Shown one piece after another: positions 10,382 through 43,043 of a stretch of DNA of 64,000 nt (position 1 is its first letter; each line of letters begins with the position of its first letter). The notes under the pieces were generated by a model. That model was given only the letters and a program-made list of their open reading frames with translations. It made no database searches and was not told the DNA's origin. Origin of the DNA: Candidatus Latescibacterota bacterium (GTDB taxonomy: Bacteria > Latescibacterota > UBA2968 > GCA-2709665); NCBI GenBank assembly GCA_965222075.1, contig OZ244937.1, positions 896,001 to 960,000 on the forward strand. The letters run 5' to 3'. Both the position numbers and the translations under genes were made by a program.

Positions 10382-10389
10382 GGAATAAG

Positions 10390-12748: not shown

Positions 12749-12799
12749 CACCAACCTGTACATTGCCAGGAACGCATACACCTTTGAAAGGGTTCGGAC

Positions 12800-14418: not shown

Positions 14419-14519
14419 AGTCCTCCCAAAATGTATCCTATGTGGGGAAATCTGTTGAAGTAAAAACGGTGCAACTGAGAAGAAAGCAATCAGCTAAGTG
14501 TTGTACAGGAGGATATTGT

Positions 14520-15197: not shown

Positions 15198-15234
15198 GGA
15201 GTGGTATGCCGATTCTAAAATCTCCATCGACTTC

Positions 15235-15528: not shown

Positions 15529-15687
15529 TAACTCGACAACACGTGATGTCCGTTGATCATGATCAATCGGGGTCGTAAGGCCGGGATAAGGACGATGTTT
15601 CAATTGGCGTACCCCGCCGTTTTTTTGGAATATGGCATCATTGCTGTCTAAAAACCGTTTACAGGGCTGGAAAAGGAAAGCCTGATT

Positions 15688-16767
15688 ATGAAAATCGCCA
15701 TTACCGTTGAAGCGCTAAAAAACGAATATTTCGCTGGAGTTGAGCAGTATATCTCCAATCTCACCTGCCAACTTGTAAATCGCGGCGAACTCGATCTGAC
15801 TCTTATTGCACCGTCAGATTTTCCTCGTCCCCTTTTTCCCGATAATACCAATGTGATTTACCATACTCCGGCTCTGGTGTTAGGGAGCGGTTTTTTTTCG
15901 GCTGTTTTTTCCCCGCCCAAAAATCTTTCAAATTTCGATCTGATTCATTGCCCTACCGTGACTGCCCCATTTTTTTTTCGGCCAAGCGCCAAGGTTGTTA
16001 TGACCGTTCACGACCTGATCCCCCTTCTTTTTCCGAAGTGGCAGACCATGAGACGGGTTCTCTACTTCAAATATTTCTTGAAGCATCGATTCCGATTTGT
16101 GGACAGGTTTATTGCCGTTAGCAACAGCACCAAACAGGACCTCATTGATCTTTTCCATATACCTGATCATAAAATCGATGTCGTCCACGAAGGGGTTTCC
16201 GAGCAGTTCAAACCAAGCATGGAAGCAAGAGAAGACTTCATCCTGGCTGTAAGCACTCTGGAGCCGAGAAAAAACTTCAAGAGAATCATTGAAGCCTACA
16301 TCCTTCTTCGACAGAAAAAAGAGACCAGCGATAGGCTGGTTATTGTAGGAAAAGAGGGATGGTTTTTTGATGATATCTTGAACGTTCCACGAGAATTTCA
16401 AGATGACATTATCTTCAAGGGCTACGTATCTGAAGCGGAGTTGATTCGCCTATTTCAGACCGCACGTTTTTTTGTTTATCCTTCAATGTACGAAGGCTTC
16501 GGCCTTCCCGTTCTTGAGGCCATGGCTTGTGGATGCCCTGTCATAACGAGTAATACATCAAGTATGCCTGAAGTCGCTGGCGAAGCGGCCCTTTTTGTAG
16601 ATCCTTACCAGATAGAAGAGATAAAAAATGCCATCTACACTCTGACAAACGATGCAGCATTGTGCGCTGCTATGGGCGCTGAAGGCATTCTCAGAGCCTC
16701 ACAATTTTCATGGCAGCGCACAGCCGAACAAACCTCTCAAGTGTATGAAAGAGAACTGGCCCGTTGA
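15688..16767 (+). CDS. GT4 (WbaZ/MtfB-like) glycosyltransferase
   Basis: TVHDLIP, STLEPRKN, YPSMYEGFGLPVLEAMACG. Confidence 0.88.
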   Translation: MKIAITVEALKNEYFAGVEQYISNLTCQLVNRGELDLTLIAPSDFPRPLFPDNTNVIYHTPALVLGSGFFSAVFSPPKNLSNFDLIHCPTVTAPFFFRPSAKVVMTVHDLIPLLFPKWQTMRRVLYFKYFLKHRFRFVDRFIAVSNSTKQDLIDLFHIPDHKIDVVHEGVSEQFKPSMEAREDFILAVSTLEPRKNFKRIIEAYILLRQKKETSDRLVIVGKEGWFFDDILNVPREFQDDIIFKGYVSEAELIRLFQTARFFVYPSMYEGFGLPVLEAMACGCPVITSNTSSMPEVAGEAALFVDPYQIEEIKNAIYTLTNDAALCAAMGAEGILRASQFSWQRTAEQTSQVYERELAR

Positions 16768-17093
16768 AAGCCACCCATATTTTCAAAACTTGTATTCGCT
16801 TACAGCCAAGTATCCGCGCCGTGTTAACTGAACCTGGGGATGCGCAGAGATTACCTTTATCCGACGATTGTGTCGATTTGATGCGCGGGCGCGATACCGA
16901 AACGGGTCATTGTTTAGCCGACATCGGACGCGCGATAGGGTTTGAGGTTCCCGCTATCGGGATCAGAAATTTGGATAGAAACCGTCGCATGCTCCCGGCT
17001 GGCGCTACGCTCAATCAGTCTTCTCAGATTCAACAGCGCATGCATCAAGAGTATGTCATCGGCTACATCAAACCCACAAAGGTTGAAATCTGA
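16764..17093 (+). pseudogene. Fragment resembling the C-terminus of a site-specific DNA methyltransferase
   Basis: GDAQRLPLSDDCVDL and LADIGRAIGF..IGIRNLDRNRRMLP...QRMHQEYVI; catalytic motifs missing. Confidence 0.4.
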
Positions 17094-17156
17094 TGGCTGA
17101 AATCGTAAAATTTTTATGCCCAATCAGAGTTTTTGTGAGATAAGGAGAGGCCATCA

Positions 17157-19589
17157 GTGAATCCAACGGTCCATCGGGTCGGGGCGGCCACTGTGTTGTT
17201 GATTTCGTTCGGGGGGTTTCTCAAGACGGTTGCTCCGACGGTTTCGTTCTGGGACTGCGGGGAGTTCATCGCCTGTTCCTACACCCTGGGGGTGCCGCAC
17301 CCGCCGGGGGCGCCGCTCTACCTGCTGTTGGGGCGGCTTTTTACGTTTCTGCCCTTTGGAGAAGACCCGGCGTTTCCCATGAATTTGATGTCGGTGATCA
17401 CCAGCGCTTTGGCAGCGATGTTCGTCTATCTGATTACGGTTCGGCTGATTCTGCTGACGCGGGAGGGAGACGCAGAGGGAGAGGGCCTGTGGCGGGACCT
17501 GCCGGTGGTTGTGGGCGGGATGACGGCCGCGCTGATGCTGGCCTTTTCGGATACGTTCTGGTTTAACGCGGTGGAGACGGAGGTCTACGGATTTTCGATT
17601 ATGCTGATGACGATGGCGGTGTGGCTGGGGATGCGCTGGATGGTCCGTCCGGGGCAGCCGGGCAGCCGCCGGTTGCTGTTTTTTGTCGCCTATCTGATGG
17701 GGCTGGCCGGTGGGATCCATCTGCTTTGCTTGCTGACGGTGCCGACGCTCCTGATTCTGATCTGGTTTGAAGACCGCGATCTGCTGAAGGATCCCAAAAT
17801 CTGGGCGATTGCCCCGATGCTCGTGGTGCTGGGGTATTCGACCTATGCGGCCCTCTACATCCGGTCCGGACTGAATCCGATGATCGATGAGAACAACCCG
17901 GAGAACTGGACGAATTTGATGGGCTTTCTCAAGCGGGAGCAGTACGGGGCGGAGAGCATGGTTTTGGGGATTTTTAACCGGAAGGCGCCGTTCTGGGACT
18001 ACCAGCTTGGGTCCATGTATTTGAAATATTTTTTCGACCAGTTCCCGGTTCCGGGCTTTCGGTTTGTATCGGAGGCGTTCCGGAAGGCGACCGGACCGGA
18101 GGTGCTGCCGGTCCGGGTCTCGGTGCTTCCTTATCTTCTGGGTTTTGGGGGGATGGCGATCCACCTGCTTCGGGATTCCAGGCGGTTCCTGGCGCTGTTT
18201 GCGCTGTTTCTGCTGACGGGGGTGGGACTTGTGGTCTATCTCAATATGCCCGATCCCCAGCCCAGGGAGCGGGACTACGTGTTTGTGGGGTCGTTCGCCG
18301 TGTTTGCGATCTGGATCGGGATGGCCGGAGAAACTACCGTGCGGTGGCTGCGGCAATGGAGGTTGAGCGCCCTGTCGGTGCTGGCTTCGGCCGCGCTGTT
18401 GCTGATGCCGGCCGGGATGGCGGGAGGCCTTTACAAGACCCACGACCGGACCGGAAACCATATCGCCTACGACTATGCATACAACATTTTGGCGTCGTGC
18501 GAACCGGAGGGGATTCTATTTACAAACGGGGACAACGACACCTTTCCCCTCTGGTTTTTGCAGGAGGTGATGGGCCTGCGGAAGGACGTGCGGGTGGTCA
18601 ACCTGAGCCTGCTGAATACAGGCTGGTACATCAAGCAGCTCCGGGATCTGCATCCCGGGGTGCTTATTCAGTATACCGATGCGTATATCGATGGGGTGTT
18701 GACACGGCACACCAGGGCAGCGCTGATGCGGGCGGGCCGTTTCTGGCCCCGGGACCGCGAGGTCACCGCAGCGGGGATGACCTGGACGGTTCCGGCCTTT
18801 CCCTGGCGGGTGCTCCGGATTCAGGATGTGATGGTTTTGAAGATTATCGATTGGAATGCCTGGGGACGGCCGATCTATTTTGCAACAACCGTTCCGGATG
18901 AAAACCTGCTGGGGTTGGAGGGGCACCTGGAGATGGAGGGGATGGTCTTCCGCCTGGTCAGGGAGAAGGCCAGACCGATCCACCCGGAACGGGCCCGGCG
19001 CAACCTCTTTGAGGTCTACCGCTACCGGGGGGTGACCGACCCGGCGGTCCACCGGGGCGAAACCGCGCTGAATTTGATGGTGAACTACCAGGCGGCGTTT
19101 TTGCATTTGGCCGAGGCGCGCCGCCTGGAGGGACAGGTGGAGGAGGCGCACAGGGTGCTGAAGTGGTGTGAGGATTTCGCGGTTGCGCCGGAGTCGTGGA
19201 CGGGATACCTGCTGCTGGCGGGGGGGATGCACCAGCTTGGGCGGGCGGATGAATTTCGGAGATTGCTGGACCGGGCCTTAGCCACAGAGGCGGCCGATGA
19301 GACGGCAAAGCAGGGGGCCGTGGCAGAGATGCTGATGGGGTTCAAACGGTTCGAGGAAGCAGTTGCGCTTTATACGGATATGGTCGACCGGGGGATGAAC
19401 GTTCCTCTGGCGCTGTTTAACCGGGCGGTCGCCAGGCAGAGGCTGGGGCAGCTGGAGGGGGCATTGGAGGATTTGCAGATGCTGGCAAGGCTGACGCCGC
19501 ACGATGGTGACGTGGCCAGGGCCATCCGGATGATCCGGGGTGAACTGGAGCAGAAGCGACAGCAGGATGTCGGAGGGGAACAGGAGTAG
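17157..19589 (+). CDS. DUF2723 (TMEM260-like GT-C) membrane protein with C-terminal TPRs
   Basis: FWDCGEFI, GVPHPPG, TFWFNAVETEVY, RERDY, FTNGDNDTFPLW, VVNLSLLNT; many TM helices. Confidence 0.85.
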   Translation: MNPTVHRVGAATVLLISFGGFLKTVAPTVSFWDCGEFIACSYTLGVPHPPGAPLYLLLGRLFTFLPFGEDPAFPMNLMSVITSALAAMFVYLITVRLILLTREGDAEGEGLWRDLPVVVGGMTAALMLAFSDTFWFNAVETEVYGFSIMLMTMAVWLGMRWMVRPGQPGSRRLLFFVAYLMGLAGGIHLLCLLTVPTLLILIWFEDRDLLKDPKIWAIAPMLVVLGYSTYAALYIRSGLNPMIDENNPENWTNLMGFLKREQYGAESMVLGIFNRKAPFWDYQLGSMYLKYFFDQFPVPGFRFVSEAFRKATGPEVLPVRVSVLPYLLGFGGMAIHLLRDSRRFLALFALFLLTGVGLVVYLNMPDPQPRERDYVFVGSFAVFAIWIGMAGETTVRWLRQWRLSALSVLASAALLLMPAGMAGGLYKTHDRTGNHIAYDYAYNILASCEPEGILFTNGDNDTFPLWFLQEVMGLRKDVRVVNLSLLNTGWYIKQLRDLHPGVLIQYTDAYIDGVLTRHTRAALMRAGRFWPRDREVTAAGMTWTVPAFPWRVLRIQDVMVLKIIDWNAWGRPIYFATTVPDENLLGLEGHLEMEGMVFRLVREKARPIHPERARRNLFEVYRYRGVTDPAVHRGETALNLMVNYQAAFLHLAEARRLEGQVEEAHRVLKWCEDFAVAPESWTGYLLLAGGMHQLGRADEFRRLLDRALATEAADETAKQGAVAEMLMGFKRFEEAVALYTDMVDRGMNVPLALFNRAVARQRLGQLEGALEDLQMLARLTPHDGDVARAIRMIRGELEQKRQQDVGGEQE

Positions 19590-19594
19590 AGGGG

Positions 19595-20692
19595 ATGGAA
19601 GAAGGCCCGATGGTGTCCATCATTGTTGCGCACTATTTGGACGATATCCTCTCCGGGTGTCTTCGAGCCATTTACGAGCGCACACAGGGGGTTTCCTTTG
19701 AAGTGATTGTGGCGGACGACCAGCCCTATGACGATGGGAGCCTGGGGCGCGCCCTGCAGAGGTTCCCGGATATCCGGGTGGTGAAGACGGGCGGTGGGAA
19801 CGGCACGCCCACCAGGGGGATGGCGGCAGGCTACAACCGGGGGTTGGAGGTCGCCCGCGGGCGGTATGCGATGCTGATGAACAACGATGTGGAGGTGTCC
19901 ACCGGATGGCTTGAGGCCCTGGTGGCGGCAGCAGAGGCGGATGAGGGGATCGGCGCCTGTCAGCCGAAGGTGCTTTCCGCCCGCGAACCGAAGCGGTTCG
20001 ACGATGGTGGCGCGGCGGGGGGGATGATGGATGTGCTGGGATATCCTTTTTGTCTGGGACGGGTTTTCGATACGGTGGAAGAGGATGAGGGGCAGTACGA
20101 TTCCTCACGGGATCTTTTCTGGGCGCTGGGCGGGGCGGTCTTCATCCGGATGTCCTGTCTGGAAAAGACGGGACGGATGGACGAGGCCTTTTACATGCAT
20201 ATGGAAGAGATCGATCTGTGCTGGCGGCTGCACCTGGCCGGGTTCCGGGTTGTCTCGGTGCCCCGGTCGGTCGTTTACCATTACGGGGGATGGTCGCTTG
20301 GAACGGAGCGATTTGTGCGGGTGTATTTGAAGCAGCGAAACAATCTGGTGATGGTCCTGAAAAACTGGTCGGCCGGGCGGTTGCTCTGGATTTTTCCCCT
20401 GCGGGTGTGTCTGGAGTTGTGCACCCTGCTGGCGATTTTCAAAGGGGATTGGAAGCATCCCGCAGCGGCACTGGGGGGGCTGCTGTGGGTGTTCACCCAT
20501 CCGCTGAATATCCTGCGCAGACGGCGAGAGGCACAGCGTTTCCGGACCGTTTCGGACGGGGAGGTTGCCGCGAAGATGTACAGGGGATCGGTGGTCTTTC
20601 AATATTTCGTGAAGGGGGTTCGGTCGGCTGTAAAACTGCTGGGCGATTCTTCCATAGAGGGAAACGATGGACCGGGTAAGGCTGGGAAATGA
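19595..20692 (+). CDS. GT2 glycosyltransferase
   Basis: VSIIVA, GYNRGL, LMNNDVEV, HMEEIDLCWR, VYHYGG. Confidence 0.88.
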   Translation: MEEGPMVSIIVAHYLDDILSGCLRAIYERTQGVSFEVIVADDQPYDDGSLGRALQRFPDIRVVKTGGGNGTPTRGMAAGYNRGLEVARGRYAMLMNNDVEVSTGWLEALVAAAEADEGIGACQPKVLSAREPKRFDDGGAAGGMMDVLGYPFCLGRVFDTVEEDEGQYDSSRDLFWALGGAVFIRMSCLEKTGRMDEAFYMHMEEIDLCWRLHLAGFRVVSVPRSVVYHYGGWSLGTERFVRVYLKQRNNLVMVLKNWSAGRLLWIFPLRVCLELCTLLAIFKGDWKHPAAALGGLLWVFTHPLNILRRRREAQRFRTVSDGEVAAKMYRGSVVFQYFVKGVRSAVKLLGDSSIEGNDGPGKAGK

Positions 20693-24811: not shown

Positions 24812-25333
24812 ATGGAACACTCTGACGGAAACTCCGGGAGCGGGCAATCAGCCACCAGGCCGCGGCGCTCGTGGCGGCATTACTGGAAGACGCCGGTCTG
24901 CTTCGGCTTCGGATTCTGTATCCTGCAAATTCTGGTCGCGATTGTACGCTTCGGCACGATGGATTCCGGGAATCCAACGAACTTGCTGTTTGCGATTCCA
25001 AGCATAGTGTCGGGCCTGATCCTGTTCTTTCTGGCCGGGTTGCTGGTCGGGTTGCTGGCGCAATACCTCTTGAAGGGCGTTGTCGGACCCTGGCGCACAT
25101 GGATACTGGTCGGGTTTGCGGTGGCCACTCCGTTTGCCGTCCTGTTCAGTCTTGTCGGAGGATTGCTCGGCCCCCATATGGTGGTCATCGGCGCTCTTGT
25201 ACCCTATCTGCTCCTGGCCGGAATCCCGTTGTTGATCCGCAGATGCCTGCGGCGTTTCCACAGCCCGCCGACCCGGGAGAAGGACCCGACGGCGGGATGT
25301 GATGGAGATGGCGAGGCTGCACGGCCGGTGTGA
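24812..25333 (+). CDS. Hypothetical membrane protein (about 4 TM)
   Basis: GGAG RBS; four hydrophobic segments. Confidence 0.6.
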   Translation: MEHSDGNSGSGQSATRPRRSWRHYWKTPVCFGFGFCILQILVAIVRFGTMDSGNPTNLLFAIPSIVSGLILFFLAGLLVGLLAQYLLKGVVGPWRTWILVGFAVATPFAVLFSLVGGLLGPHMVVIGALVPYLLLAGIPLLIRRCLRRFHSPPTREKDPTAGCDGDGEAARPV

Positions 25334-25364
25334 GGCGACGGCCGTGGGAGCGCCCGGCGGCCTG

Positions 25365-25472
25365 ATCAGGAAGGGTTACCCGACTCCTGGGGCGTTGAAA
25401 TGCATTGCCTGCATTGGGAGCATTGGGAGCATTGGGTCGGGAAGAACTACCTGCCTCCTGGGGCGTTGAAAC
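25365..25472 (+). CRISPR. Degenerate CRISPR-like repeat-spacer-repeat (37/34/37 nt)
   Basis: ATCAGGAAGGGTTACCCGACTCCTGGGGCGTTGAAAT and GTCGGGAAGAACTACCTGCCTCCTGGGGCGTTGAAAC (29/37 identical); no cas genes in the window. Confidence 0.4.
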
Positions 25473-25474
25473 GG

Positions 25475-25500
25475 GTAGGGGCGATCCTTGTGGTCGCCCC
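25475..25500. repeat. GTAG-type REP palindrome (copies at 26795-26820 and 27866-27891)
   Basis: GTAGGGGCGATCCTTGTGGTCGCCCC with a GGGCGA/TCGCCC stem. Confidence 0.7.
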
Positions 25501-25543
25501 TTTGGCCTTTGTGGACTTCGCGCGGGGGGCCGCTCCGGGAGGT

Positions 25544-25588
25544 CGGTGCAGGATTTGGGTTGATTCGGAGGGCCGGTTTTCGTAAATT
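25544..25588 (+). repeat. 45-bp promoter-containing repeat, copy 2
   Basis: TTGATT-N17-TAAATT; similarity extends upstream into anmK-like sequence (CGCTCCGGG). Confidence 0.8.
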
Positions 25589-25653
25589 ATATAGTATACA
25601 GCTGGTGTCGGCCTCGTGGATACGATGGTCATTCCCAAACAAGGGGGTTCGCT

Positions 25654-26699
25654 ATGTTTGGCAGTATTCGCAGTGTGTTTGTGTTGGTGCTTGCCGGAGG
25701 TGTGACGTGGAGCTGCAGCGGCGAACGTGTGATGACGCCACAGGTAACGGATGCAGGCCTGCCTGTCGGGCAGACAGGCGAACAGATTGGAGGGCCGCTG
25801 AGTAAACCGGCTGTAAGCAGGGACTTGACGCAGGCTGTGGTGGTGGTGACGGTGCAGCAAGATCAGGCGCCTGTAAGTGGTGCAACCGTGGCGCTCTCGC
25901 GTTCTGTTTCGGGACGGGCAGCGGATTATCGGTGGTCGGGCACAACCGATGAGAATGGTCAGGCGAAGGTGTATATTTGGGCGGATGATGTGAGTGGTTA
26001 TTATCAGGCGCGCGCCTTGCAGGATGGGAGCCCGCTGGGGATGTGGTCGAGTATTCCGATTAATGGTGGATATGAGTCGATGGTTGATTTGCCCGTTGGC
26101 GGGAAGGCACGCGTGACGGGTTCGTCCATTCTGGTATTAGAAAGTATCGTGGGATCCTGGGGGTACGTGGGAACGGATATAGGTCAAACGGTAAGTAAGA
26201 AACTGGAGAATGCTCTGGTCGATTTACTAGACATTTTTTCGAGTTTGCTTGGCCTGGATCTGGATCCAGCGGCTGTCGCCATGATCGTCCAGGAGTTCAC
26301 GAGCGAGATGGAGACCAGCATCAGCGATACCCTGTCATCCATCCGGCGCTTTAACGCTGACGGCTCTTTTGAAGACGACGACGGCAATACGGGGGCTGGT
26401 ATTAGAAAGTATCGTGGGATCCTGGGGGTACGTGGGAACGGATATAGGTCAAACGTTAAGTAAGGTGCTGGTTCGTGAGTGGCAACCTCCTGACGATGGT
26501 AGACGCAGACGGGTTTACCATTGAGGGCACGTATTTCGTGGACGGCGACAACTTGACGCTCTTCTTCACCAGGGACCAGTACTTTCAGATCATCGGACAG
26601 GAGGTTGAGGACGTGGACGAGGAGGCCCAGGTCAAGGCGTTCTTAGATGCCATTATCGAGGAGGGAGACACGATCCGGTTCTTCTTTGGAGCCGGATAG
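25654..26699 (+). pseudogene. Lipoprotein, tandem copy A, interrupted
   Basis: Lipobox-like VTWSC; disrupted by a 69-bp copy (26396-26464) of 26131-26199; C-terminus continues in ORF 26475-26699. Confidence 0.75.
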
Positions 26700-26755
26700 C
26701 GGTCCGATGTGGGGCAATCCTCCTGGGAGCGCGGGCGCCTGCCCGCGTGTTGGGA

Positions 26756-26792
26756 GTCAGGAAGGATTATCCGCCTCCTGGGGTATTGAAAC
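26756..26792 (+). CRISPR. Solitary CRISPR-like 37-nt repeat
   Basis: GTCAGGAAGGATTATCCGCCTCCTGGGGTATTGAAAC, 30/37 identical to each copy at 25365 and 25436. Confidence 0.35.
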
Positions 26793-26847
26793 GGATAGGG
26801 GCGATCCTTGTGATCGCCCCTTTAATTTGCCGACGAGTATCCCTGGC

Positions 26848-26892
26848 CGGTGCAGGATTTGGGTTGATTCGGAGGGCCGATTTTCGTAACTT
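26848..26892 (+). repeat. 45-bp promoter-containing repeat, copy 3
   Basis: TTGATT-N17-TAACTT. Confidence 0.8.
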
Positions 26893-26945
26893 TCATACAG
26901 CTGGTGTCGGCTCGCTGGTAGTTTCCAAGATTAAGGAGGTTCGCT

Positions 26946-27856
26946 ATGTTTAGCAGTATTCGCAGTGTGTTTGTGTTACTGCTTGCGGGAGGCGTGACGT
27001 GGAGCTGCAGCGGCGAACGTGTGACGACGCCACAGGTAACGGGCATGCAGGCCCGCCTGTCCAGGGGGCGCTGAGTAAGCCGGCTGTAAGCAGGGACTTG
27101 ACGCAGGCTGTGGTGGTGGCTGAGGTGCAGCAAGGTCAAAGTGGTGTAACCGTGGCGTTCTCGCGTTCTGTTTCAGGACGGGCAGCGGATTATCGGTGGT
27201 CGGGCACAACCGATGAGAATGGTCAGGCGAAGGTGTATATTTGGGCGGATGATGTGAGTGGTTATTATCAGGCGCGCGCCTGGCAGGACGGGAGCCTGCT
27301 GGGTTCGTGGTCGAGTATTCCGATTAACGGTGGAAATGAATTGATGGTTGATTTGCCCGTTGGTGGAAAGGCACGCGTGACGGGTTCGTCCATTCTGGTA
27401 TTAGAAAGTATCGTCGGATCCTGGGGGTACCTGGGAACGGATATGGTTCAAGTGGTCAGTAAGAACCTGGAGAATGCTCTGGTGGGCCAGGGCGTGGATC
27501 CAGCGGCTGCTGTTGTTATCATCCAGGAGTTCACAAGCGATATGGAGGCCAGCATCAGCGGTAATTGGACATCAATCCGGCACTTTAGCGCTGACGGCTC
27601 TTATGAAGACGAAGACACTACGGGGAACTGGTCCGTGAGCGGCAACCGCCTGACGATGGTGGACGCAGACGGGTTTACCGTTGAGAGCGCGTATTTCGTG
27701 GACGGCGACAACTTGACGCTCTTCTTCACCAGGGACCAACTCCTGGGGATCATCGGTCAGTTGGTTGGTGAGGGCTGGGACGCGGAGTCCCAGGAGTTAT
27801 TCGATGTCATGATTCAGGAGGGAGATACGATCCGGTTCTTCTTTGGAGCCGGATAG
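26946..27856 (+). pseudogene. Lipoprotein, tandem copy B, frameshifted
   Basis: AAGGAGG plus ATG 26946 (MFSSIRSVF..VTWSC) is out of frame with ORF 26999-27856; shift at about 27040-27065; paralogous to copy A. Confidence 0.75.
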
Positions 27857-31771: not shown

Positions 31772-33307
31772 ATGGCCGAAGGGAAGGTCTACTTAGTCGG
31801 AGCGGGGCCTGGAGATCCTGAGTTGTTGACGATAAAGGGGCTGCGCTGTGTCCGGCAGGCCGATGTGATCCTCTACGACGGGCTGGCCAACCCCGATTTG
31901 CTTGAGGAGGCCCCTGAAGGGTGCGAGGTGATCGATGTGGGAAAGCACATCGATGGACACAGGCGCGACAGGGATCGGCAACAGGCAAAGATCGATGCGA
32001 CGATGCTGGAGAAGGCCAGGGCCGGTCTCAATGTTGTACGCCTGAAGGGGGGCGACCCGTTCGTGTTCGGACGGGGCGGGGAGGAGGCCGAGGCCCTTCA
32101 AAGCGCAGGTGTGCCTTTCGAGGTGGTGCCGGGCATTACCAGCGCAATCGCAGCGCCGGCCTACGCCGGTATACCGGTGACTCACCGGACGCTTTCCCCT
32201 TATGTGACGTTTGTGACCGGCCACCGGGCGTCTTTGGAAGGGGCGCAGGATGTAGACTGGGAGGGTCTTGCGCGGCTGGGAGGGACGCTGGTGGTTCTGA
32301 TGGGGGTACGCAACCGGGCGGAAGTGGCCGCCAGGCTGATGGCGGGAGGATACGCGGCCGATACGCCGGTTGCGGTTGTGCAGCGGGGTACCCTGCCGTC
32401 TCAGAAGACGGTGCGGACCGCGCTGGAGGGGCTTGGGGGCGTGGATGTGACAAACCCGGCAGCCATTGTGGTGGGTCAGGTGGCCGGGCTTGACTTTTCC
32501 TGGTTTGAGTCCCGGCCGCTGTTTGGGGTGCGGGTCGCCGTGACCCGCACGCGGAAACAGGCGGGCGAGCTGGTCGGCCTGCTTCAGGCTCTGGGGGCGG
32601 AGGTGCTGGAGGCGCCCACGGTCCGGATCGAGGGGCCGGCCGACTGGGGGCCGGTGGACCGGGCGATCGGTGAGATCGAAGCATACGACTGGGTGGTGTT
32701 TTCCAGCGCAAACGGGGTGGAACGCTTTTTCGGCCGAATGCTGGATCTGGAGGGGGACCTGCGGGCTTTGAAAGGGGTCAGGATCGCAGCCGTAGGCCCT
32801 GCTACGGCCGAAAAGGTCGCTGCTTATTACCTGGGCGTTGACCTCTGCCCGTCGCACCACGTCGCAGAGGGGCTGGTCGAAGCGTTCAAACAGGAGGGCG
32901 GGGTTGCCGGAAAACGGATTTTGATCCCCCGTGCCGAGCAGGCCCGGGAGGTACTGCCCGGAGCGCTCCGGGAAATGGGGGGTGACGTGCGGGAGGTGGT
33001 GGTTTACAGGACGGTAAGGCCAGGGGCGTTTCCGGCGGGTGTGGTTTCACGGCTGGTGCGGGGAGAGCTTGATCTGGTGACGTTTACGAGTTCTTCCACG
33101 GCAGGGCATTTTGCCGATTTGCTTGGCCCTCACCGGCTGGAACGGGTGCGCGCCCGGATTCCGGCTGCCAGTATCGGTCCGAGTACTTCGCAGACGGCGC
33201 GGGACCTGGGATTCCGGGTGGTTGCCGAACCCCCCGAGGGTGATATTTCGATCCCGGGCCTGGTCAGGGCTATTCTGGCCTATTATCAGGATCAAATCCA
33301 GGTGTGA
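31772..33307 (+). CDS. cobA: Uroporphyrinogen-III C-methyltransferase/synthase fusion (CobA-HemD)
   Basis: LVGAGPGDP, RLKGGDPFVFGRGGEE; HemD part VTR, FSSANGV, FTSSST. Confidence 0.93.
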   Translation: MAEGKVYLVGAGPGDPELLTIKGLRCVRQADVILYDGLANPDLLEEAPEGCEVIDVGKHIDGHRRDRDRQQAKIDATMLEKARAGLNVVRLKGGDPFVFGRGGEEAEALQSAGVPFEVVPGITSAIAAPAYAGIPVTHRTLSPYVTFVTGHRASLEGAQDVDWEGLARLGGTLVVLMGVRNRAEVAARLMAGGYAADTPVAVVQRGTLPSQKTVRTALEGLGGVDVTNPAAIVVGQVAGLDFSWFESRPLFGVRVAVTRTRKQAGELVGLLQALGAEVLEAPTVRIEGPADWGPVDRAIGEIEAYDWVVFSSANGVERFFGRMLDLEGDLRALKGVRIAAVGPATAEKVAAYYLGVDLCPSHHVAEGLVEAFKQEGGVAGKRILIPRAEQAREVLPGALREMGGDVREVVVYRTVRPGAFPAGVVSRLVRGELDLVTFTSSSTAGHFADLLGPHRLERVRARIPAASIGPSTSQTARDLGFRVVAEPPEGDISIPGLVRAILAYYQDQIQV

Positions 33308-34077
33308 TTCGATGGCCAGGCTGTTGTTTTACCCCCCCCGGTTTTGCCGGGGGTCTCAGGCTGGACGCGGCAACGGGATTCGAGGCGCGACAGGCCCGGC
33401 CGGGACGAATTAGGCCGTTTCGGGCAAAATGTCACAGAAAAAGCGGACCTTCCTGCGGCCCCACGTGGGTTTCAAGAACGCCTCTCAACCGCCCCCCCGG
33501 ACCGGGGTCGCAGTTGCCACAATTGTTGCAAAATGCGCCACTCGTTGCAGATTGCAACACATCCACCCTCGCCCTCTTATTTCTTCCTGTAAGTTATTGT
33601 AAAAAATACGGAAAAACGGATATTAACGCGGATTTTGAGGTTGCATTGGTGGAAAATAATGATTACTTTTAATAATGGATATACCTTGAAAAAATTATAG
33701 GTCGCATCAATACGAATTGTAATTCAAAGTTCAGCCCGAAGCGATAGAAAAAACCGTCGGTTCCCTGACCTGCCAAAGTCGAAAACCGACGGTCCTGAAA
33801 GAAGGTCCACAGCCTGTGTGTCCCCCAGCGCTTTTGTGCTGCGAGACGGGATGCGGCCTTCATTAAAACATATAAAAAAACCCCTGAAATGTCAATGACA
33901 CCCATCCGGAATCGAAAGCGTATCAACTGACCATCGAACTGGTCGCTTCCGATCCGGACGGGGATGACCTGACCTACCGTCAACCTGTACGGTAGTGTTA
34001 TCACCGGAACAGCGCGGTGGGCGGATATTTTTACAACAACACAAGTCCAGCAGGGGTTCCTTAACCGGGATAAACCC

Positions 34078-35328
34078 GTGGCGATCAAGGAATATCTTCC
34101 GGAAGTTATCGCCACACGCACAGCTGAAAACTGCCGACGGCATCCATTCTTTAAGGGAAGTTGGAAGTGGCGGATCGGGGCGATATGCCTGTGTGCCATC
34201 CTTCTTGGGGTCATTTACCACCCTGAGTATGTACCCGGACAACGTGGTCAGCAGCAAGCGGCGCGTCAGCCCTCCGTATTGAAGTCCGGGGCAGGTGTGG
34301 ACGTGGCGTCGGGTCGTCTGCCGAGGTGGCTCGGCAACGAAGGGTGGGAGACGTCTCGTGCGGTCCCGGAACCGGCGGCGGATGATGAGATGGTGGCACA
34401 GGGTAGGGATGGCATCGTCGGGCGCTTTCACGCGATGTTGAAGGCCATTTTGAGTCGCAGGGTGAACGACAAGCCCGGTGAGTATGGGTCCCGGAACCGG
34501 GGGATACGGGCCGATGCGCCGCTTCTGTCGGTACTGTCCACGGCGCGATCGCAGGCCGAGGCATCTGAGGTTAAGCGTCAACGCTCCGCAGGTACGGTTT
34601 TCAGGGACTGTGAGGAATGTCCTCAGATGGTGGTGTTGCCGTCGGGTTCGTTCATGATGGGGTCGCCCGATGGAGAGGAGGGACGGGATGAAGATGAGAG
34701 TCCACGGCATCTTGTAAAGATAGAGTACCGGTTTGCGGTGGGTGTGTATGAGGTGACGTTCGATGAGTGGGAGGCGTGCGTGGCTGCCGGGGGTTGCGGG
34801 GGATACGTCCCGAACGATAAGAACTGGGGACGGGGTGAACGGCCGGTGATCAACGTGAGTTGGGACGATGCGCAGTCGTACGTATCGTGGTTGTCGAAAC
34901 GAACGGGTGTATCGTATCGTCTGTTGAGTGAGTCGGAATGGGAGTATGCGGCGCGTGCGGGTACGACGACGAGGTACAGCTGGGGGGATGACATCGGCCG
35001 CAACCTGGCCAATTGCCGTAGTTGCGGCAGCCGGTGGGACGCCCAGGGCACAGCGCCGGTGGGTTGGTTCCCCGCAAATGCGTGGGGTCTGCACGATATG
35101 CGCGGGAACGTGTGGGAGTGGGTGCAGGATTGCTGGAACGACCACTATCTTCGTGCACCGGCGGACGGGTCGGCCTGGGAGCGGGGAAATTGTTCGCGTC
35201 GCGTGTTGCGCGGGGGCTCGTGGGTCAGCATACCGAGGAATCTGCGTTCGGCGAACCGGCTCAGGTTTACCTCCGTCGGACGGCTCAACGACTTCGGGTT
35301 TCGTGTTGCCCGGACGGTTACCCCTTGA
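34078..35328 (+). CDS. Membrane-anchored FGE-sulfatase/CLec-fold protein, DGR target-like
   Basis: TM near the N-terminus; FRDCEECPQM, FMMGS, SWDDA, RLLSESEWEYAAR, GNVWEW, RVLRGGSW...GFRVAR. Confidence 0.85.
   Translation: MAIKEYLPEVIATRTAENCRRHPFFKGSWKWRIGAICLCAILLGVIYHPEYVPGQRGQQQAARQPSVLKSGAGVDVASGRLPRWLGNEGWETSRAVPEPAADDEMVAQGRDGIVGRFHAMLKAILSRRVNDKPGEYGSRNRGIRADAPLLSVLSTARSQAEASEVKRQRSAGTVFRDCEECPQMVVLPSGSFMMGSPDGEEGRDEDESPRHLVKIEYRFAVGVYEVTFDEWEACVAAGGCGGYVPNDKNWGRGERPVINVSWDDAQSYVSWLSKRTGVSYRLLSESEWEYAARAGTTTRYSWGDDIGRNLANCRSCGSRWDAQGTAPVGWFPANAWGLHDMRGNVWEWVQDCWNDHYLRAPADGSAWERGNCSRRVLRGGSWVSIPRNLRSANRLRFTSVGRLNDFGFRVARTVTP
35197..35328 (+). other. Putative DGR variable region (VR) and IMH
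   Basis: Variable codons after RGGSW mostly end in C (GTC AGC ... CTC ... TCC GTC ... CTC AAC GAC TTC), as expected from AAC-rich template codons. Confidence 0.6.
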
Positions 35329-35361
35329 ATCTTTTCTTCTTTACCTCTTTGGAGATCAATC

Positions 35362-35556
35362 TTGAGCGAAGCGTCCCCTCTACAACCTCGTGTACGCGGC
35401 GGTGGCCGCTCGCGCGAAACCGGCCCGGCGCTGGAGTCGCACTTTCGTTTTCTCGCCTGGTTGGTCCCGACCGTGGAGCGTTTCCCGCGCAGTCAGAAGT
35501 TTCTGCTGGGCGGCCACGACAGCCAAGACGCCATTTGGGTTTGGGCAGTAGCCTGA
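35362..35556 (+). pseudogene. avd: Truncated DGR accessory variability determinant
   Basis: RETGPALESHFRFLAWLVPTVERFPRSQKFLLG matches the Avd N-terminal helix pattern (W..P....FPR..KF.LG); similarity ends near 35512. Confidence 0.7.
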
Positions 35557-35619
35557 GGAGAAGTTGCCATTGCGTTTCGGTCAAATTTGTTGGATATTGC
35601 CTCTGCGTTCTTTATCCTT

Positions 35620-35652
35620 CCTGCCTGCCGCGCCCAACGCGGCGCAGGCAGG
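35620..35652. repeat. CCTGCCTG...CAGGCAGG palindromic element
   Basis: CCTGCCTG-CCGCG-CCCAA-CGCGG-CG-CAGGCAGG. Confidence 0.7.
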
Positions 35653-35692
35653 TCGTTTCAGGTGGTTTGGGACAACCTGAATTTGGATACCG

Positions 35693-35757
35693 GTGGGCGG
35701 GTCCAAAGAGGTTGCGGTGGATGTGCGGGTGGTCTCGGCCACGAACGAGAACCTTAT
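35693..35757 (+). pseudogene. Scrap of a sigma54-dependent activator AAA+ domain
   Basis: VGGSKEVAVDVRVVSATNENL, the conserved DVRVIAATN segment. Confidence 0.55.
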
Positions 35758-35923
35758 GCACTGTCCATTAAATCGATGCTGTTGCCGAATTCCGAATTCT
35801 GTATCGATGCAACTAAACATAGGGCTTACAGAGCCTGAATTCAGGCCACAAACAGCCGTTTATCAACCGCAAGCTCCCTCTTGACCAATTCGGCAACAGC
35901 ATCTAAATCGGGGTAACTCCAGT

Positions 35924-37165
35924 ATGATGAACATGCGCTCGCTCCATGTGCAAATCCCCATCGCGTTGCTCCTCGGCACAATGAGTGGCATGCTGTTAGG
36001 TGAATCCGTTCTCCACTTCGCCTTTTTGGGGACCCTTTTTCTCAAGGGCCTTAAAATGATTATCGTCCCCTTGATCGCCACCTCCATTGTTTCCGGAGTG
36101 GTCGGCATAGGCAAGGTCGGTTATTTTGGACGCTTGAGTGCTCAGACCTTTACCTACTACCTGGGCACCAGCCTGTTGTCCATTATTACCGGCCTGGTAT
36201 TGGTCAATGCCATAAGTCCAGGCAAGGGGGCGCAGTTGCGTCTGCAAGCTCCTCCTGAACAACTGGCCCATTCCATAGCTCAATTCGGCGACGGTCCCAA
36301 AGCCGCTCTTGAGCGGCTGCTGTTGGATATGGTGCCGGATAATGTATTCAAGGCGATGGCTGAGGGACAGATCTTGCCCGTGATCGTCTTTTGCTTCCTT
36401 CTCGGATTTGCCATCATCCGCTTGTCAGATCCGCACCAGAAGCGCCTGCGTAGTTTTTTTCAATCGGCCTTCGAAGCCATGATGCAAATAACCCATTTTA
36501 TTATTCGTCTGGCACCCATCGGCATTTTTGCCCTGGTCGCCAAAGTCGTTGGCACCACCGGCCTGTCGATTTTCGTCGATTTGGGTCTGTACGCCCTTAC
36601 TGTCTTAGTTGGTCTGATCGTCCACGCGGCGATTATTCTACCGCTCGTGCTCTATTTTTTGGGTGGCATATCGCCTTTGGCCCTCCTTCGTGCTCTGATG
36701 CCGGCTCTCCTCACCGCCTTTTCTACCAGTTCCTCTTCGGCGACCTTGCCCATTACCATTGAATCTTTGGAACAACGCGCTGGCGTTTCCAACCGCACCA
36801 CCAGTTTTGTTGCGCCGCTGGGTGCCACCATCAATATGGATGGTACAGCCCTGTTCGAATGCGTCGCCGCCCTATTTATTGCTCAAGCCTATGGGATTGA
36901 GTTAGGCTTTATCCAGCAATTCCTGGTCGTTCTTACCGCTTTGTTGGCCTCCATCGGCGCGGCCGGCATTCCTATGACGGGCCTGGTGATGCTTTCTATT
37001 GTCCTATCCTCTGTGGGTCTGCCCCTGGAGGGGATCGGCCTAATTTTGGCTGTAGATCGCATTTTGGACATGTTTCGCACCACTGTCAATGTCTGGGGCG
37101 ATTCGTGTGGCACTGCCCTGATAGCCCGCTGCCAAGGTGAAAACCCGCTCGTGGCAAAAAATTAG
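35924..37165 (+). CDS. Dicarboxylate/amino acid:cation symporter (DAACS/GltP family)
   Basis: FLKGLKMIIVPL, AFSTSSSSATLP, GATINMDGTAL, DRILDMFRT. Confidence 0.93.
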   Translation: MMNMRSLHVQIPIALLLGTMSGMLLGESVLHFAFLGTLFLKGLKMIIVPLIATSIVSGVVGIGKVGYFGRLSAQTFTYYLGTSLLSIITGLVLVNAISPGKGAQLRLQAPPEQLAHSIAQFGDGPKAALERLLLDMVPDNVFKAMAEGQILPVIVFCFLLGFAIIRLSDPHQKRLRSFFQSAFEAMMQITHFIIRLAPIGIFALVAKVVGTTGLSIFVDLGLYALTVLVGLIVHAAIILPLVLYFLGGISPLALLRALMPALLTAFSTSSSSATLPITIESLEQRAGVSNRTTSFVAPLGATINMDGTALFECVAALFIAQAYGIELGFIQQFLVVLTALLASIGAAGIPMTGLVMLSIVLSSVGLPLEGIGLILAVDRILDMFRTTVNVWGDSCGTALIARCQGENPLVAKN

Positions 37166-37418
37166 GGAATTATGCGAGCAAGGAAGTTGAAGGCGGTTTC
37201 TACTTCAGAAATCCCAATACGCGAAGTGGCGTATTCTCGACTTTGTCCAATTTGGGGTTTAAGCAGCATGTGGAAACTCGCCCGCAGATGAAAGACTCGT
37301 TACATCGAAAGATTTCTCCGGGAGGACCCATTTACGGGTTGCCAAACTGAGGCGTTTTGTTTTAATTTTGTCTGTTCTGAGAAACCCATTTTCACACCCT
37401 TATCACAGGAGGTACAAA

Positions 37419-39944
37419 ATGCAACACAAATGTCGTTTTTTGTCTCTCGTACTCGGCATGGCTGCCATGCTCATTCTGTATGGACCTGCCGTGTCGCAGG
37501 AAACGCCGCGTTCCGAAAGCACAGATACGACATCTGTCTTTAGCGAAGTGATCATCCTCGAAGAATTGGTGGTCATTGGTTCCCGGGCAAAACCGCGTTC
37601 CGTCGTCGAATCGGCCGTGCCCGTTGATGTGGTCAGTAGCGCAGAGATCGCCAGACAGGGCGAAGCCGATCTGCAAAATCTGGTGAGAACGGTTGTGCCT
37701 TCCTTCAGTGTCAACACCCAACCCATCAGTGATGCCTCCACGCTTGTCCGTCCGGCTAATCTGCGCGGCCTGGCCCCCGACCACACGCTGGTACTCATCA
37801 ACGGCAAACGCCGCCATCGCAGCTCTCTCGTCGTTTGGCATGGCAATGGCGTATCAGATGGCGCGCAAGGGGCCGACATATCGGTCATTCCAGCGATCGC
37901 CCTGAAACAGGTGGAAGTCCTGCGCGATGGCGCCTCCGCACAATATGGTTCTGACGCCATTGCCGGCGTGATGAGCTTCCAACTCAAAGACCACTACCGG
38001 GGCGGCTCAATTGAAATCAAACCCGGTATCTATCAGGCAGGCGATGGTTTTAAGTACAATGTTGCTGGCAATATCGGTCTGGGAAGCGAAACTGCGTGGG
38101 CCAACCTCAGTTTGGAATATGGCAACACAGATGATACTGATCGATCTGCACAACGCGATGACGCCAAAGCACTCATTGCCGCCGGCAATACCGATGTGGC
38201 CGATCCCGCCCAAATTTGGGGTTCGCCCATCATTAGAAATGACCTTAAATTCTTTGCCAACTACGGCGGAAACCTGTCGGAAAACACCAGATTCCATGGC
38301 TATGCCAACTATGCGAGCAAAGAAGTGGAAGGCGGATTTTTCTTCCGAAATCCCAATACACGCGGGGGCGTCTTCAGTGCCGATGGTGGTAAGACATTGC
38401 TCGTGGGCAAATTGAACCCCAATGCGCCCGATCCTCCCGCTGTCAACATAACCAACAACGTGGCAGACCCGAACGCGCTACAACAGGTTTTAAATAATAA
38501 AAACGACTATTTCACATTTCGCGAACTCTTTCCGGGTGGTTTTACTCCCCGATTTGGTGGCACCACCGCCGATTATGCCCTTCTCGCGGGTGTTAAAGGC
38601 ACAAATTTTGACCCGCTCTGGACATGGGATCTCAGTGCTTATTACGGAAGTCACGAAGCCGATTTCGTGATTAAAAACACGGTAAATGCCTCTTTGGGAC
38701 GCGATACTCCCACGGAATTTGATCCCGGAGCCTATATCCAAAAAGACTTCAATTTAAATCTCGACTTTACATTTCCGGTAAGCGATCAGGTTTTTTTGGC
38801 CGCGGGTCTCGAATACAGAAATGAAAAATACGAAGTTGTGCAGGGACAACCCGAGTCCTTTCAAATAGGTCCTTTGGCCCCTCAGGGATTCAGTGCTGCG
38901 TCCAATGGATTTTCCGGCTTTAGCGATATTGCTGCTGGCGACTGGAGTCGGTCCAATTATGCGGCTTATGGGGATGCCGAATTAACCCCGTCGGACAATT
39001 GGTTGCTCGGTCTCGCGCTGCGCTATGAAAACTTCAGTGACTTTGGTTCGACCCTCAACTACAAGGCAGCTACCAACTTCAGCATCACGGAAGAACTGAA
39101 ATTGCGCGGCAGTTTCAGCACCTGTTTCAGAGCGCCCACACCCGGTCAACAGAATTCTTTTAACGTATCAACTCGATTCGATCCTGCGTTAAATGATCTG
39201 GTCAACAGAGGTACCATTCCATCAACCCACGCCGCGGCAGAGCTGGTGGGTGGCAAGCCTCTCAACCCTGAAAAGTCGAACAACCTCACGGCCGGCTTTA
39301 TTGTGGACAGGGCAAACTTCAGTTTAACCGTTGATTATTTTCAAATTGACCTGAAGGACCGCCTGGGTATTTCAAAGAACTACTCTCTGAGCGATGCCCA
39401 GCGCGACCAATTGATCGCTTCGGGCATAACCAGCGCGAAAAATATCCAGACCTTTCGTTTCTTCATCAATGACTTCGAAACCAGAACCCGTGGCGTCGAC
39501 ATCGTTTTTGTCACACCTGTGGGCAATGGCGATTTCAGCTTTGTTTACAACCTCACAGACACAGAAGTAACCAAACTCACGGAAACATTGAGCGAGACAC
39601 GCGTTCGGCAACTGGAGGAAGCACTTCCCAAAAGCCGCGTCAACGCGACCCTGGCGCAATCTTTTAACGATATGTGGGATGTCTTGATTCGCATGAGCTA
39701 TTACGATTCCTGGTGGGACAGAGACAACGATCAAACATATCCCGGCGTATGGCCGTTGTTCGATATTGAAACCAGTATCGCACTGAACGAAAAAATGCGG
39801 ATCACGCTTGGCTCCCGCAATGTCCTCAATACCTTTCCAGAAGAAAATAAGAACAAAGGTTCTGTGGGTGAAAAGTACAGCGAGTACACCCCATTTGGTT
39901 TTAATGGGGCATTTTGGTACTCAAAAGTCAGTTATAACTTTTAG
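37419..39944 (+). CDS. TonB-dependent receptor
   Basis: AGGAGG RBS; TonB box EELVVIGSR, LRGLAPDHTLVLINGKRRH, VEVLRDGASAQYGSDAIAGV, terminal SYNF. Confidence 0.93.
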   Translation: MQHKCRFLSLVLGMAAMLILYGPAVSQETPRSESTDTTSVFSEVIILEELVVIGSRAKPRSVVESAVPVDVVSSAEIARQGEADLQNLVRTVVPSFSVNTQPISDASTLVRPANLRGLAPDHTLVLINGKRRHRSSLVVWHGNGVSDGAQGADISVIPAIALKQVEVLRDGASAQYGSDAIAGVMSFQLKDHYRGGSIEIKPGIYQAGDGFKYNVAGNIGLGSETAWANLSLEYGNTDDTDRSAQRDDAKALIAAGNTDVADPAQIWGSPIIRNDLKFFANYGGNLSENTRFHGYANYASKEVEGGFFFRNPNTRGGVFSADGGKTLLVGKLNPNAPDPPAVNITNNVADPNALQQVLNNKNDYFTFRELFPGGFTPRFGGTTADYALLAGVKGTNFDPLWTWDLSAYYGSHEADFVIKNTVNASLGRDTPTEFDPGAYIQKDFNLNLDFTFPVSDQVFLAAGLEYRNEKYEVVQGQPESFQIGPLAPQGFSAASNGFSGFSDIAAGDWSRSNYAAYGDAELTPSDNWLLGLALRYENFSDFGSTLNYKAATNFSITEELKLRGSFSTCFRAPTPGQQNSFNVSTRFDPALNDLVNRGTIPSTHAAAELVGGKPLNPEKSNNLTAGFIVDRANFSLTVDYFQIDLKDRLGISKNYSLSDAQRDQLIASGITSAKNIQTFRFFINDFETRTRGVDIVFVTPVGNGDFSFVYNLTDTEVTKLTETLSETRVRQLEEALPKSRVNATLAQSFNDMWDVLIRMSYYDSWWDRDNDQTYPGVWPLFDIETSIALNEKMRITLGSRNVLNTFPEENKNKGSVGEKYSEYTPFGFNGAFWYSKVSYNF

Positions 39945-41428: not shown

Positions 41429-43043
41429 ATGAAAATGATGTGCGGTTGGAAAGGCCTCTGCCTGCTCTGGGCCGTGTGTAGCCTGTACAGCGGCGCGCAG
41501 GCGCAGGGTGGACAGGCAGGCCTGCCTGGGGCACCGGGTACGGGTTGAACTGTTCGTGATGCCGCACTGTCCCTACGGCGTGCGGGCAGAGACGGCCCTG
41601 GCGCCGGTGCTGAAGGATTTTGGAGACCAGATCGATTTCCAGCTCTATTTTATCGCGAAAGAGGCCGGAAAAGAAGACGCACAGGCGCCGGTTGCCCGGG
41701 TATCGACGCCGCGGAACCAGCCTGCCTGTGAAGCGAGCACTGTTGGCGGAACGGGGCGCTTTCGCAGTTTGCACGGAGATGCGGAGGTGGAAGAGGGCAT
41801 CCGTCAGACAGCGATGATGGCCCTCTATCCTGACCGGTATTACGAGTATATTCTTTGCAGGAACAAGGCGGTGCATGCCGATAACTGGGAGACGTGTGCG
41901 ACGGCGGCCGGAATGCACCCGGCACGGGTTGTAGCGACGGCCTCGGGGCCGGAGGGCGAAGCGCTTTACCTTCAAAACATCCGGAGGGGCAACCTGCTGG
42001 GGATCAATTCCTCGCCCACGTTGCGGGTCAACGGGGCGGAGGTCAAGGATTTTCTTACTCCCCATGCTCTGGCGCGCCGCATCTGCCGGGGAAAGCGCGG
42101 CCCGGGTGCGTGTGAAGCAGTACCCGTCTGTGGAAGTGACCCGGATTGTTCGAGGCCGGGCAAGGTGGGCGTGTGCGTCAAACCGAATCGGCCGGATGCC
42201 CGGTGCAGGTTCAGCGATCCGGTTGTTTTTCAGATCACGGGGCTGAACGACCCCGAATGTAAGGTCTGTGAGACCGGGCCCTTCATCCGGTCTACGCTGG
42301 CGCTTTTTCCCGGCGCCCGGATTCGTACGCTGACCATCGGTTCGGCGGAGGGGCAGGCGCTGGTTGAGCGCTACGGCATCGATCGGGTGCCGGCCTTTGT
42401 TCTGGACGAGGGCTTTGACCGGACCGCCCGGTTTGCGCGGTTTGCGCGCCTGGTGCGCCGGGTTTCGGGGAAGTATCTGGTCGATCCGAGAATGATTCCG
42501 GTGACGCGGTTCCTGGACCGGGCGGCGCAGCCCGGGCGGCTGGACCTCTTTTTGGGGACAGCATCGTCCTTTGCAATGGGAACAGCAGGGGAATTGATCG
42601 TTTGGCTGAGGAAGGAGAATGCCCTGGATCGGCTGTACGTGCACTACCTGGGGGGGGGTGAGGATACCTGGCACCTCTGCGTTCAAAAGGCCCTGCCGGA
42701 GGGCCACCTGAATTATCTTGTATGCCGGGTGCGCGGGGTGGTGGAGGGGCAGCGGGCCCCCTCTCGGGAGGCCTGTATCAAAACGCTCGGATTGGATCCC
42801 GAACGGATCGGGCGGTGTGCAACAGGGGCCGAGGGGGCGCGCCTGCTTGAGAAATCGCTGGGCCTGGCTGCCGATCTGGGCCTCCAGAGGAGAGTGAATC
42901 CCACAGTAATGATGGATAACCGGATTGTGGTAACGGGCGGTATGGTCCGGCGGGTACGCGATCTTTTCCACCGGATACATCCGGGGCAAAGAGAAGGTGA
43001 ACACGATGCAGAGATGGGGGAGGGACAAGCTCAGAGGAGGTGA
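41429..43043 (+). CDS. Exported Cys-rich thioredoxin/DsbA/GILT-like protein, frameshifted after the signal peptide
   Basis: ATG 41429 encodes a signal peptide (..AQA) out of frame with ORF 41508-43043; VELFVMPHCPYG, SLHG..E, GINSSPT, CKVC. Confidence 0.6.
41513..41528. repeat. Perfect 16-bp palindrome CAGGCAGGCCTGCCTG at the frameshift site
   Basis: Self-complementary; removing it restores the reading frame. Confidence 0.65.

Follow-up and report, generated by a model that had tools for sequence, protein, structure and literature searches.

A gene on the Candidatus Latescibacterota contig OZ244937.1, within a stretch of 64,000 nucleotides that we call the window, is a DGR target, past or present: its C-terminal VR is held in a CLec domain, differs from a TR of its family with a bias toward adenines, and leads into an IMH-like end. 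We consider it probable that this gene is now a frozen former target carrying one fixed variant. The locus displays an adenine-mutagenesis footprint, an Avd stub, a missing hairpin, the remnant of a kinase, and a contrast in selection between linker and CLec domain (Table 1). It is not a complete DGR, as RT, a TR in cis, and a full-length avd are all missing in the window. The gene is flanked by a haem-synthesis operon and a dicarboxylate symporter.

Table 1. Features of the target gene and its surroundings, in window coordinates
Feature	Positions	Strand	Basis
Ser/Thr kinase N-lobe remnant with VAIKEYLP motif	34063..34131	+	74% in a 23-aa alignment by tblastn (queries P0071 and P0083, kinase-CLec relatives; E ~1e-4)
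Probable former DGR target gene, 416 aa	34078..35328	+	Built from a kinase remnant, a hydrophobic anchor, a relaxed linker, and an FGE-type CLec domain that holds the VR
Residues 33-47, hydrophobic, probably the single membrane anchor	34174..34218	+	Kyte-Doolittle peak 1.6; aligns with the hydrophobic segment of intact relatives
Linker repeat of 73 residues, relaxed selection	34312..34530	+	Identity and dN/dS versus intact relatives
FGE-subclass C-type lectin fold domain, cysteine-free VR, still constrained	34600..35325	+	PF03781, dN/dS, fold matches
VR with adenine-mutagenesis footprint	35197..35316	+	18/33 TR adenines versus 8/87 other bases differ from the L002 TR
Gene 3' end, stop codon, and pyrimidine tract (IMH-like; putative IMH function)	35317..35349	+	Conserved in six close loci aligned
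Deletion junction, GC-rich hairpin of ~42-45 nt missing	35347..35350	.	Alignment, spacing, P0124
avd 5' stub, 50/132 codons; from there to the stop at 35556 the sequence is unrelated	35362..35511	+	NF033474, PF22296 homologues, P0122
Palindromic element of 33 nt past the avd break	35620..35652	.	z = -4.4; similar copy at 11883-11914
Sigma-54 AAA+ activator gene fragment (debris)	35693..35761	+	PF00158 positions 125-147, E 0.008, under the curated cut-off
MITE-like element	35775..35903	.	17-bp perfect terminal inverted repeats, flanking 6-bp direct repeat TAAATC

The VR carries the mark of adenine mutagenesis. A first-pass annotation, made from the letters of the DNA, had pointed to NNC codons at the positions that are normally rich in Asn, and both the peptide and the listed codons are present as described. 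The footprint that it proposed exceeds chance when the VR is compared with the TR of L002 (Ca. Latescibacterota, OZ244744.1), the locus nearest in DNA, whose avd is 90% identical at the nucleotide level (Fisher p = 4.3e-7; counts in Table 1), whereas the non-VR part of the gene, set as a control against the L002 target, gave 34/109 differences at adenines and 111/475 at other bases (p = 0.06). Against 45 of 57 TRs of equal length, which are related to one another and not independent, the adenine bias of the VR reached p < 1e-3. The VR codons that are not of the NNC type (ATA, TTT, and GGA) face the TR codons AAA, AAT, and AAA and so also fit adenine mutagenesis. Among the eight non-adenine differences, five are synonymous third-position changes, two fall in the first codon, and one is at position 35276, where 21 of the 57 TRs have an A. 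On a slightly shorter span, the window has six non-adenine mismatches to the L002 TR, versus a median of one between hairpin-bearing targets and their own TR; because of this excess, we regard the L002 TR as a relative of the true template and not the template itself.

The domain that holds the VR has the FGE fold, as first described. Pfam places PF03781 (FGE-sulfatase) at residues 180-412 of the product (E 4.8e-56), and an AlphaFold model of the CLec domain (pLDDT 87.7, from a 50-sequence alignment) aligned structurally to PvdO (Z 33.6, rmsd 1.7, 237 residues), to FGE (Z 28.2), and to the DGR target TvpA (2y3c; Z 27.9, rmsd 2.2, 223 residues). TvpA is also a match at the level of sequence (E 1.3e-12).

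The avd stub starts 33 nt past the target stop. Its part 35389-35511 is 98% identical to the PF22296 Avd proteins P0121 and P0122, and over the full stub 47 of 49 residues are identical to the intact P0122, which has 132 amino acids and 27 member sequences. Pfam alone missed the stub; it was found by NCBIfam, in which the sole match of 35389-35511 is NF033474 Avd (E 0.001-0.002), and by homologue search. The alignment ends near 35512, in agreement with the Avd N-terminus and the break that had been predicted there, and no full-length avd is found here. The absence of a TR and an RT, also claimed at first, is borne out within the window. No TR was detected in the 64 kb by repeat search, short-word BLAST, or an adenine-aware scan, the best non-self candidate having 34 non-adenine mismatches in 117 nt, and none of 45 ORFs matched an RT family, with a best E of 4.7 for tblastn of the L002 RT. 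The region from VR to avd had no blastn match in plasmids or phages.

Between target and avd, the locus has lost a structure that its closest relatives keep. The conserved 3' end is common to related targets and unlike the end of the L002 TR, and the expected pyrimidine tract is in place at 35330-35349. In all six close loci aligned, a GC-rich inverted repeat lies between this tract and avd, and the window skips across it at about 35348; the hairpin of L004 is imperfect, and the VR of L004 is broken as well. The distance from target stop to avd, taken by the same measure throughout, is 79-82 in L001, L003, and L008 versus 37 in the window. Read-through protein P0124 has 15 extra codons at the junction, which corresponds to a gap of 44 nt, and both P0123 and P0124, the read-through proteins with the Avd parts nearest to the stub, have extra sequence there. 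The first-pass annotation had taken GCGAAGC (35366-35372) for the DGR hairpin. We reject this candidate: the letters are codons 2-4 of avd (TTG AGC GAA GCG, M-S-E-A, shared with P0121 and P0122), this region does not fold better than shuffled sequence (z = 0.12), its best perfect stem is 5 bp, a length reached or exceeded in 124 of 300 shuffles, and the real hairpin is deleted here.

The meaning of this deletion depends on how far targeting needs the hairpin. In BPP-1, deleting or shortening the equivalent element made homing undetectable or strongly reduced, according to PMC3240598; Wu 2018 (PMC5758913) calls the repeat "not essential." Stems of at least 7 bp stand behind 43 of 57 avd-adjacent targets, and 14 of the 57 are without one. 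Within loci that use hairpins, targets without one have drifted further from their own TR: six of them have 1, 1, 3, 10, 10, and 14 non-adenine mismatches, versus a median of 1 for hairpin-bearing targets (n = 39; Mann-Whitney p = 0.02, after three rows with more than 25 mismatches were dropped as non-cognate); two of the six, with a single mismatch, show no drift. Eight related TR-bearing loci have no stem of at least 7 bp behind any target, and their VRs differ from the TR almost only at adenines. L075 is one of these eight, and its targeting is suggested to be hairpin-independent; a missing hairpin or an avd stub is thus no proof of inactivity.

The 5' end of the gene tells of a second loss. 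The called GTG start is a Val codon within the kinase remnant, and the remaining kinase is deleted; Pfam found no intact kinase domain (PF00069) in the target product, which keeps a 23-residue remnant. P0005, 96% identical to the window protein, retains a longer but still defective kinase piece, which indicates that the kinase was lost stepwise. Intact relatives are kinase-TM-CLec receptors, a class with N-in topology. The first reading, correct on the fold, had missed that the gene is a receptor stripped of its kinase, and its description of the product as membrane-anchored is not confirmed, since the signs of an anchor are homology and a borderline Kyte-Doolittle peak.

Selection has treated the remaining parts of the protein differently. 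In the linker, the window is 33-37% identical to six intact relatives, which are 76% identical among themselves; in the CLec domain the corresponding values are 68-74% and 75%. By a simple counting method with two comparators, dN/dS of the linker is 0.55-0.71 for the window versus 0.11 for intact relatives and that of the CLec domain 0.20 versus 0.16, values that, with relatives about 75% identical, mirror mostly old history and not present function. The linker has accumulated a dN of about 0.55 yet contains no stop or indel across 73 codons, and the CLec domain has been spared such drift, which suggests that the truncated form was long under selection on its binding domain. We also considered the drifted linker as a long adenine-mutagenized retrocopy and rejected this on the distribution of mismatches (A 19/38, C 15/37, T 13/30, G 15/68).

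Relatives were drawn from the best 80 of 251 GTDB Avd-like loci, searched with P0122; 69 of these 80 carry an RT, and none of them is syntenic with the window flanks. Tetranucleotide composition of the window, set against that of 51 long loci, gave a best r of 0.64, with L002 outside the top 10. No avd among the best 80 of 251 exceeds 90% identity to P0122, in a collection that does not necessarily contain the host species; short avd stubs rank low, and the host's own stub, if in the GTDB collection, would probably lie outside these 80. Of 57 loci whose TR is on the + strand, 52 have it 0.9-1.3 kb past avd, and in L002 Pfam places RT between avd and TR. The family order is thus target-avd-RT-TR, the avd-RT-TR part being architecture B2 in the scheme given in PMC5758913, and not the target-avd-TR-RT first assumed. 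The intact DGR at L002 2715-12787 comprises two kinase-TM-CLec targets, avd, RT, and TR, with a PP2C-like phosphatase following the TR; codon 650 of the target next to avd is an internal stop. By prediction, L002 is a hypervariable receptor-kinase signalling module in Latescibacterota.

Stubs like that of the window recur in this family. The 5' end of avd stands behind 9 of 30 non-adjacent targets, in L012, L017, L039, L051, and L075, with scores of 49-172, whereas 200 random flank windows scored no higher than 38; a hit in L006 (score 45), not at the avd 5' end, was left out of the count. We take this to mean that "target plus avd stub" arises repeatedly by duplication of a target with its 3' flank and that some copies are still diversified. 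L075 (Latescibacteria, 4140-20358) contains a tandem array of at least five kinase-CLec targets; their VRs all differ, none has a GC hairpin, and degenerate avd stubs follow four of them.

The Avd lineage (62-90% identity to P0122 in L001-L080, the best 80 of 251 loci) was observed in Acidobacteriota, Latescibacterota, Binatia, Proteobacteria, Dehalococcoidia, Nitrospira, and Spirochaetia, a distribution consistent with wide horizontal spread. P0123, P0124, P0133, and P0188 join target and Avd, or Avd and RT, in one frame; these fusions are probably frameshift errors or mis-calls. P0001 and P0182 perhaps share a contig, which hints at a near-identical allele beside another broken Avd, and P0121 and P0242 may do so as well, hinting at the nearest Avd beside a different target paralog.

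The alleles available for comparison agree in their VR. The VR of the window recurs unchanged in P0001 (99% identical, with three differences outside the VR) and in P0003, which also differs from the window elsewhere; these are two of the two near-identical database proteins with a readable VR, nine members of the P0001 cluster lying outside the comparison. Among the shorter proteins there was no near-identical allele with a different VR, the best of the 120 listed being 76% identical. The near-identical P0005 stops ahead of the VR, right after a short insertion; an identical short in-frame CLec insertion occurs in P0124, and both might, at a guess, be related to the palindrome at 35620. Consensus assemblies conceal minority VR variants, and purifying selection is able to mask DGR activity, as stated in PMC8144416.

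Taken as a frozen former target, the locus would have the following history. Its ancestor would have been a receptor with a cytoplasmic Ser/Thr kinase, one membrane helix, a helical linker, and an outward-facing CLec domain, encoded in a target-hairpin-avd-RT-TR cassette like that of L002. Avd and RT act in cDNA synthesis, and in such a cassette they would have turned TR RNA into cDNA mutagenized at adenines, which then took the place of the VR. In the order we propose, the kinase would have eroded stepwise long ago while the linker drifted and the CLec domain stayed constrained. Separation from RT and TR would have followed, probably recently because the avd stub is still 96% identical to intact Avd, either by a copying-out of the target with its 3' flank, as in the nine related cases, or by deletion in place. 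The first-pass annotation had the cassette losing TR and RT; loss in place is one possible route only, given the stubs that copied-out targets carry, and RT and TR may never have been present here. The data fit both origins, a copied-out target and a cassette remnant. A deletion of about 44 nt would finally have removed the hairpin needed for efficient retrohoming, so that the VR would rarely be rewritten even if RT and TR existed elsewhere. The product is most likely, by prediction, an anchored, non-signalling binding protein with a single fixed binding surface. We also counted the surrounding debris (activator fragment, palindrome, and MITE) in favor of a frozen locus.

The choice offered at first was between a frozen variant and one diversified in trans; DGR ancestry, the stub, and the absence of TR and RT hold, and the deletion of the real hairpin tilts the choice toward frozen. 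That an intact avd-RT-TR cassette elsewhere rewrites the VR in trans, through the retained 3' end and without the hairpin, strikes us as unlikely, even though an intact Avd as close to the stub as P0122 exists, the VR and conserved 3' end are intact and in frame, and L075, a locus lacking the hairpin, has varied VRs and avd stubs; PMC5758913 also documents remote targets and action in trans. The lineage had the hairpin and then lost it, the VR is the same in both alleles, and the search of the best 80 of 251 GTDB loci, where the host species is not necessarily included, gave no avd above 90% identity to P0122. Moreover, targets tied to the nearest Avds read LRAA where the window VR reads LRSA, which may hint at a different TR, the LRAA motif being read in an alternative frame of P0124 and in P0242 through its presumed link to P0121. 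As an active remote target, then, the locus is deficient in its hairpin, a feature that is not universal in the family. Somewhat doubtful, in our view, is a variant of the frozen reading in which the gene is a dead pseudogene whose ORF is open because decay is recent and from which no protein is made. A start at a Val codon inside the kinase remnant, debris on both sides, an R for the consensus H168 of the HGNVWEW motif (H in at least 90% of alignment rows), and the end of P0005 before its VR would all suit a pseudogene, as would a promoter scan that found no + strand sigma-70-like site for the target gene (two sites, both on the - strand, with 1.1 expected). Recent decay does not account for a linker that drifted so far with no stop or indel while the CLec domain was spared, which needs long selection on the truncated form, and the same ORF of 416-417 aa is called across the nine-member P0001 database cluster.

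The two remaining alternatives have far less weight. A chimera, with target and avd taken from two different DGRs and fused at the pyrimidine tract either in vivo or through misassembly, is very unlikely. Of the TRs compared, that of L002 comes closest to the VR, while the bases immediately preceding the avd start are more like L003, and strong GC hairpins can be lost from assemblies; P0124, however, agrees with the window sequence on either side of the junction, which fits a single deletion, and a chimera formed in vivo would still be hairpin-less and leave the main conclusion the same. Hardly credible is a plain FGE- or PvdO-like enzyme that was never a DGR target, its NNC codons due to chance. 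PvdO and FGE are indeed the best matches in sequence and fold, but the product scores 233 bits for PvdO, below the NCBIfam equivalog cut-off of 500, and in the alignment the VR is cysteine-free where FGE has its catalytic pair, a role in line with the PDB titles naming C336S and C341S. Such an enzyme would also leave unexplained an adenine bias against a real TR (p = 4e-7, with a nonsignificant control) and an Avd stub so close behind the stop.

The preferred reading, a frozen former target, makes the locus a relic of a type already known, and it behaves as a switched-off DGR target. With the L002 cassette it shares an FGE-type CLec target with a C-terminal VR and conserved 3' end, an avd directly behind, and kinase-TM-linker-CLec ancestry; unlike L002, it has no hairpin, RT, TR, or PP2C-like gene, its avd is cut after 50 codons, its kinase is deleted, and its flanks are non-syntenic. 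The closest published parallel in kind is all3226 of Nostoc PCC 7120 (Vallota-Eastman et al. 2020, PMC7517822), described there as a dispersed paralog in which a remnant of TR-VR homology survives but no RT is close by; both this RT-less paralog and kinase-CLec targets, the commonest multidomain form there, are thus on record. Its authors propose that diversification parts are removed after a good variant has been selected. The window differs from those cyanobacterial VPs, most of which are predicted to be cytosolic, in lineage and in its predicted membrane anchor, and the hairpin deletion and avd stub mapped here are not reported in the Results section on all3226.

Treponema denticola TvpA and its remote targets (2y3c; PMC6602519 and PMC5758913) resemble the locus in having an FGE-subclass CLec domain and targets far from RT, but those remote targets match a TR of the same genome and some keep hairpins, whereas no cognate TR lies within the window. 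Remote targets were counted in 45 of 372 DGRs in the latter source. The order of VR and conserved end recalls BPP-1 (Guo et al. 2011, PMC3240598), as does the GC-rich stem of 7-11 bp in relatives; the differences are the absent stem in the window, family loops that are often not GRNA, and a cellular, not phage, context. DGR loci broken by MITEs have been published (bioRxiv 2023.09.22.558884). Our literature search found no description of this DGR lineage for Latescibacterota or sponge microbiomes, although the supplementary tables of PMC5758913 and PMC8144416 may list it, and no DGR paper on a truncated, partial, or remnant avd.

The locus leaves the DGR mechanism itself unchanged. It offers a clean example of a DGR target leaving its machine, in which hairpin deletion, avd break, and stepwise kinase loss can each be mapped, and the fixation of favorable variants by shedding diversification parts, so far a hypothesis (PMC7517822), becomes testable within one species. 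The avd stubs behind non-adjacent targets suggest that satellite targets can arise when a target is duplicated together with its 3' flank, and they provide a marker for such targets. A further conjecture, to which we give little credence, is a lock-in: target, 3' flank, and avd stub would have been copied out, the hairpin deletion would have fixed a selected variant, and, with the kinase gone, what had been a hypervariable sensor would have become a permanent adhesin or decoy. If true, the locus would record, as a dated snapshot, the domestication of a DGR variant, in a DGR lineage common to many phyla.

The surrounding DNA contains other remnants and repeats. The MITE-like element is a single copy in the window and has no match in the best 80 of 251 loci. 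Upstream of the target, 33918-33989 encodes a 24-aa frame fragment (…DPDGDDLTY…) with no Pfam match, reminiscent of cadherin-like or Ig repeats and probably further gene debris. Two sub-threshold CRISPR-repeat matches from Rfam on 33300-36000 were taken as chance. Long ORFs at 41508-43043, 55660-58161, and 58984-61082, the last of these an ORF group in a low-GC stretch, have no Pfam match at E 0.001. Tandemly duplicated uncharacterized genes occupy 24812-27856; their repeats reach 300 nt and are 80-95% identical (families D1, D3-D5, D8, and D9), and there is one weak lipocalin-like match. At 37168-37236, a 69-nt fragment is 83% identical to part (38307-38375) of the downstream TonB-dependent receptor gene.
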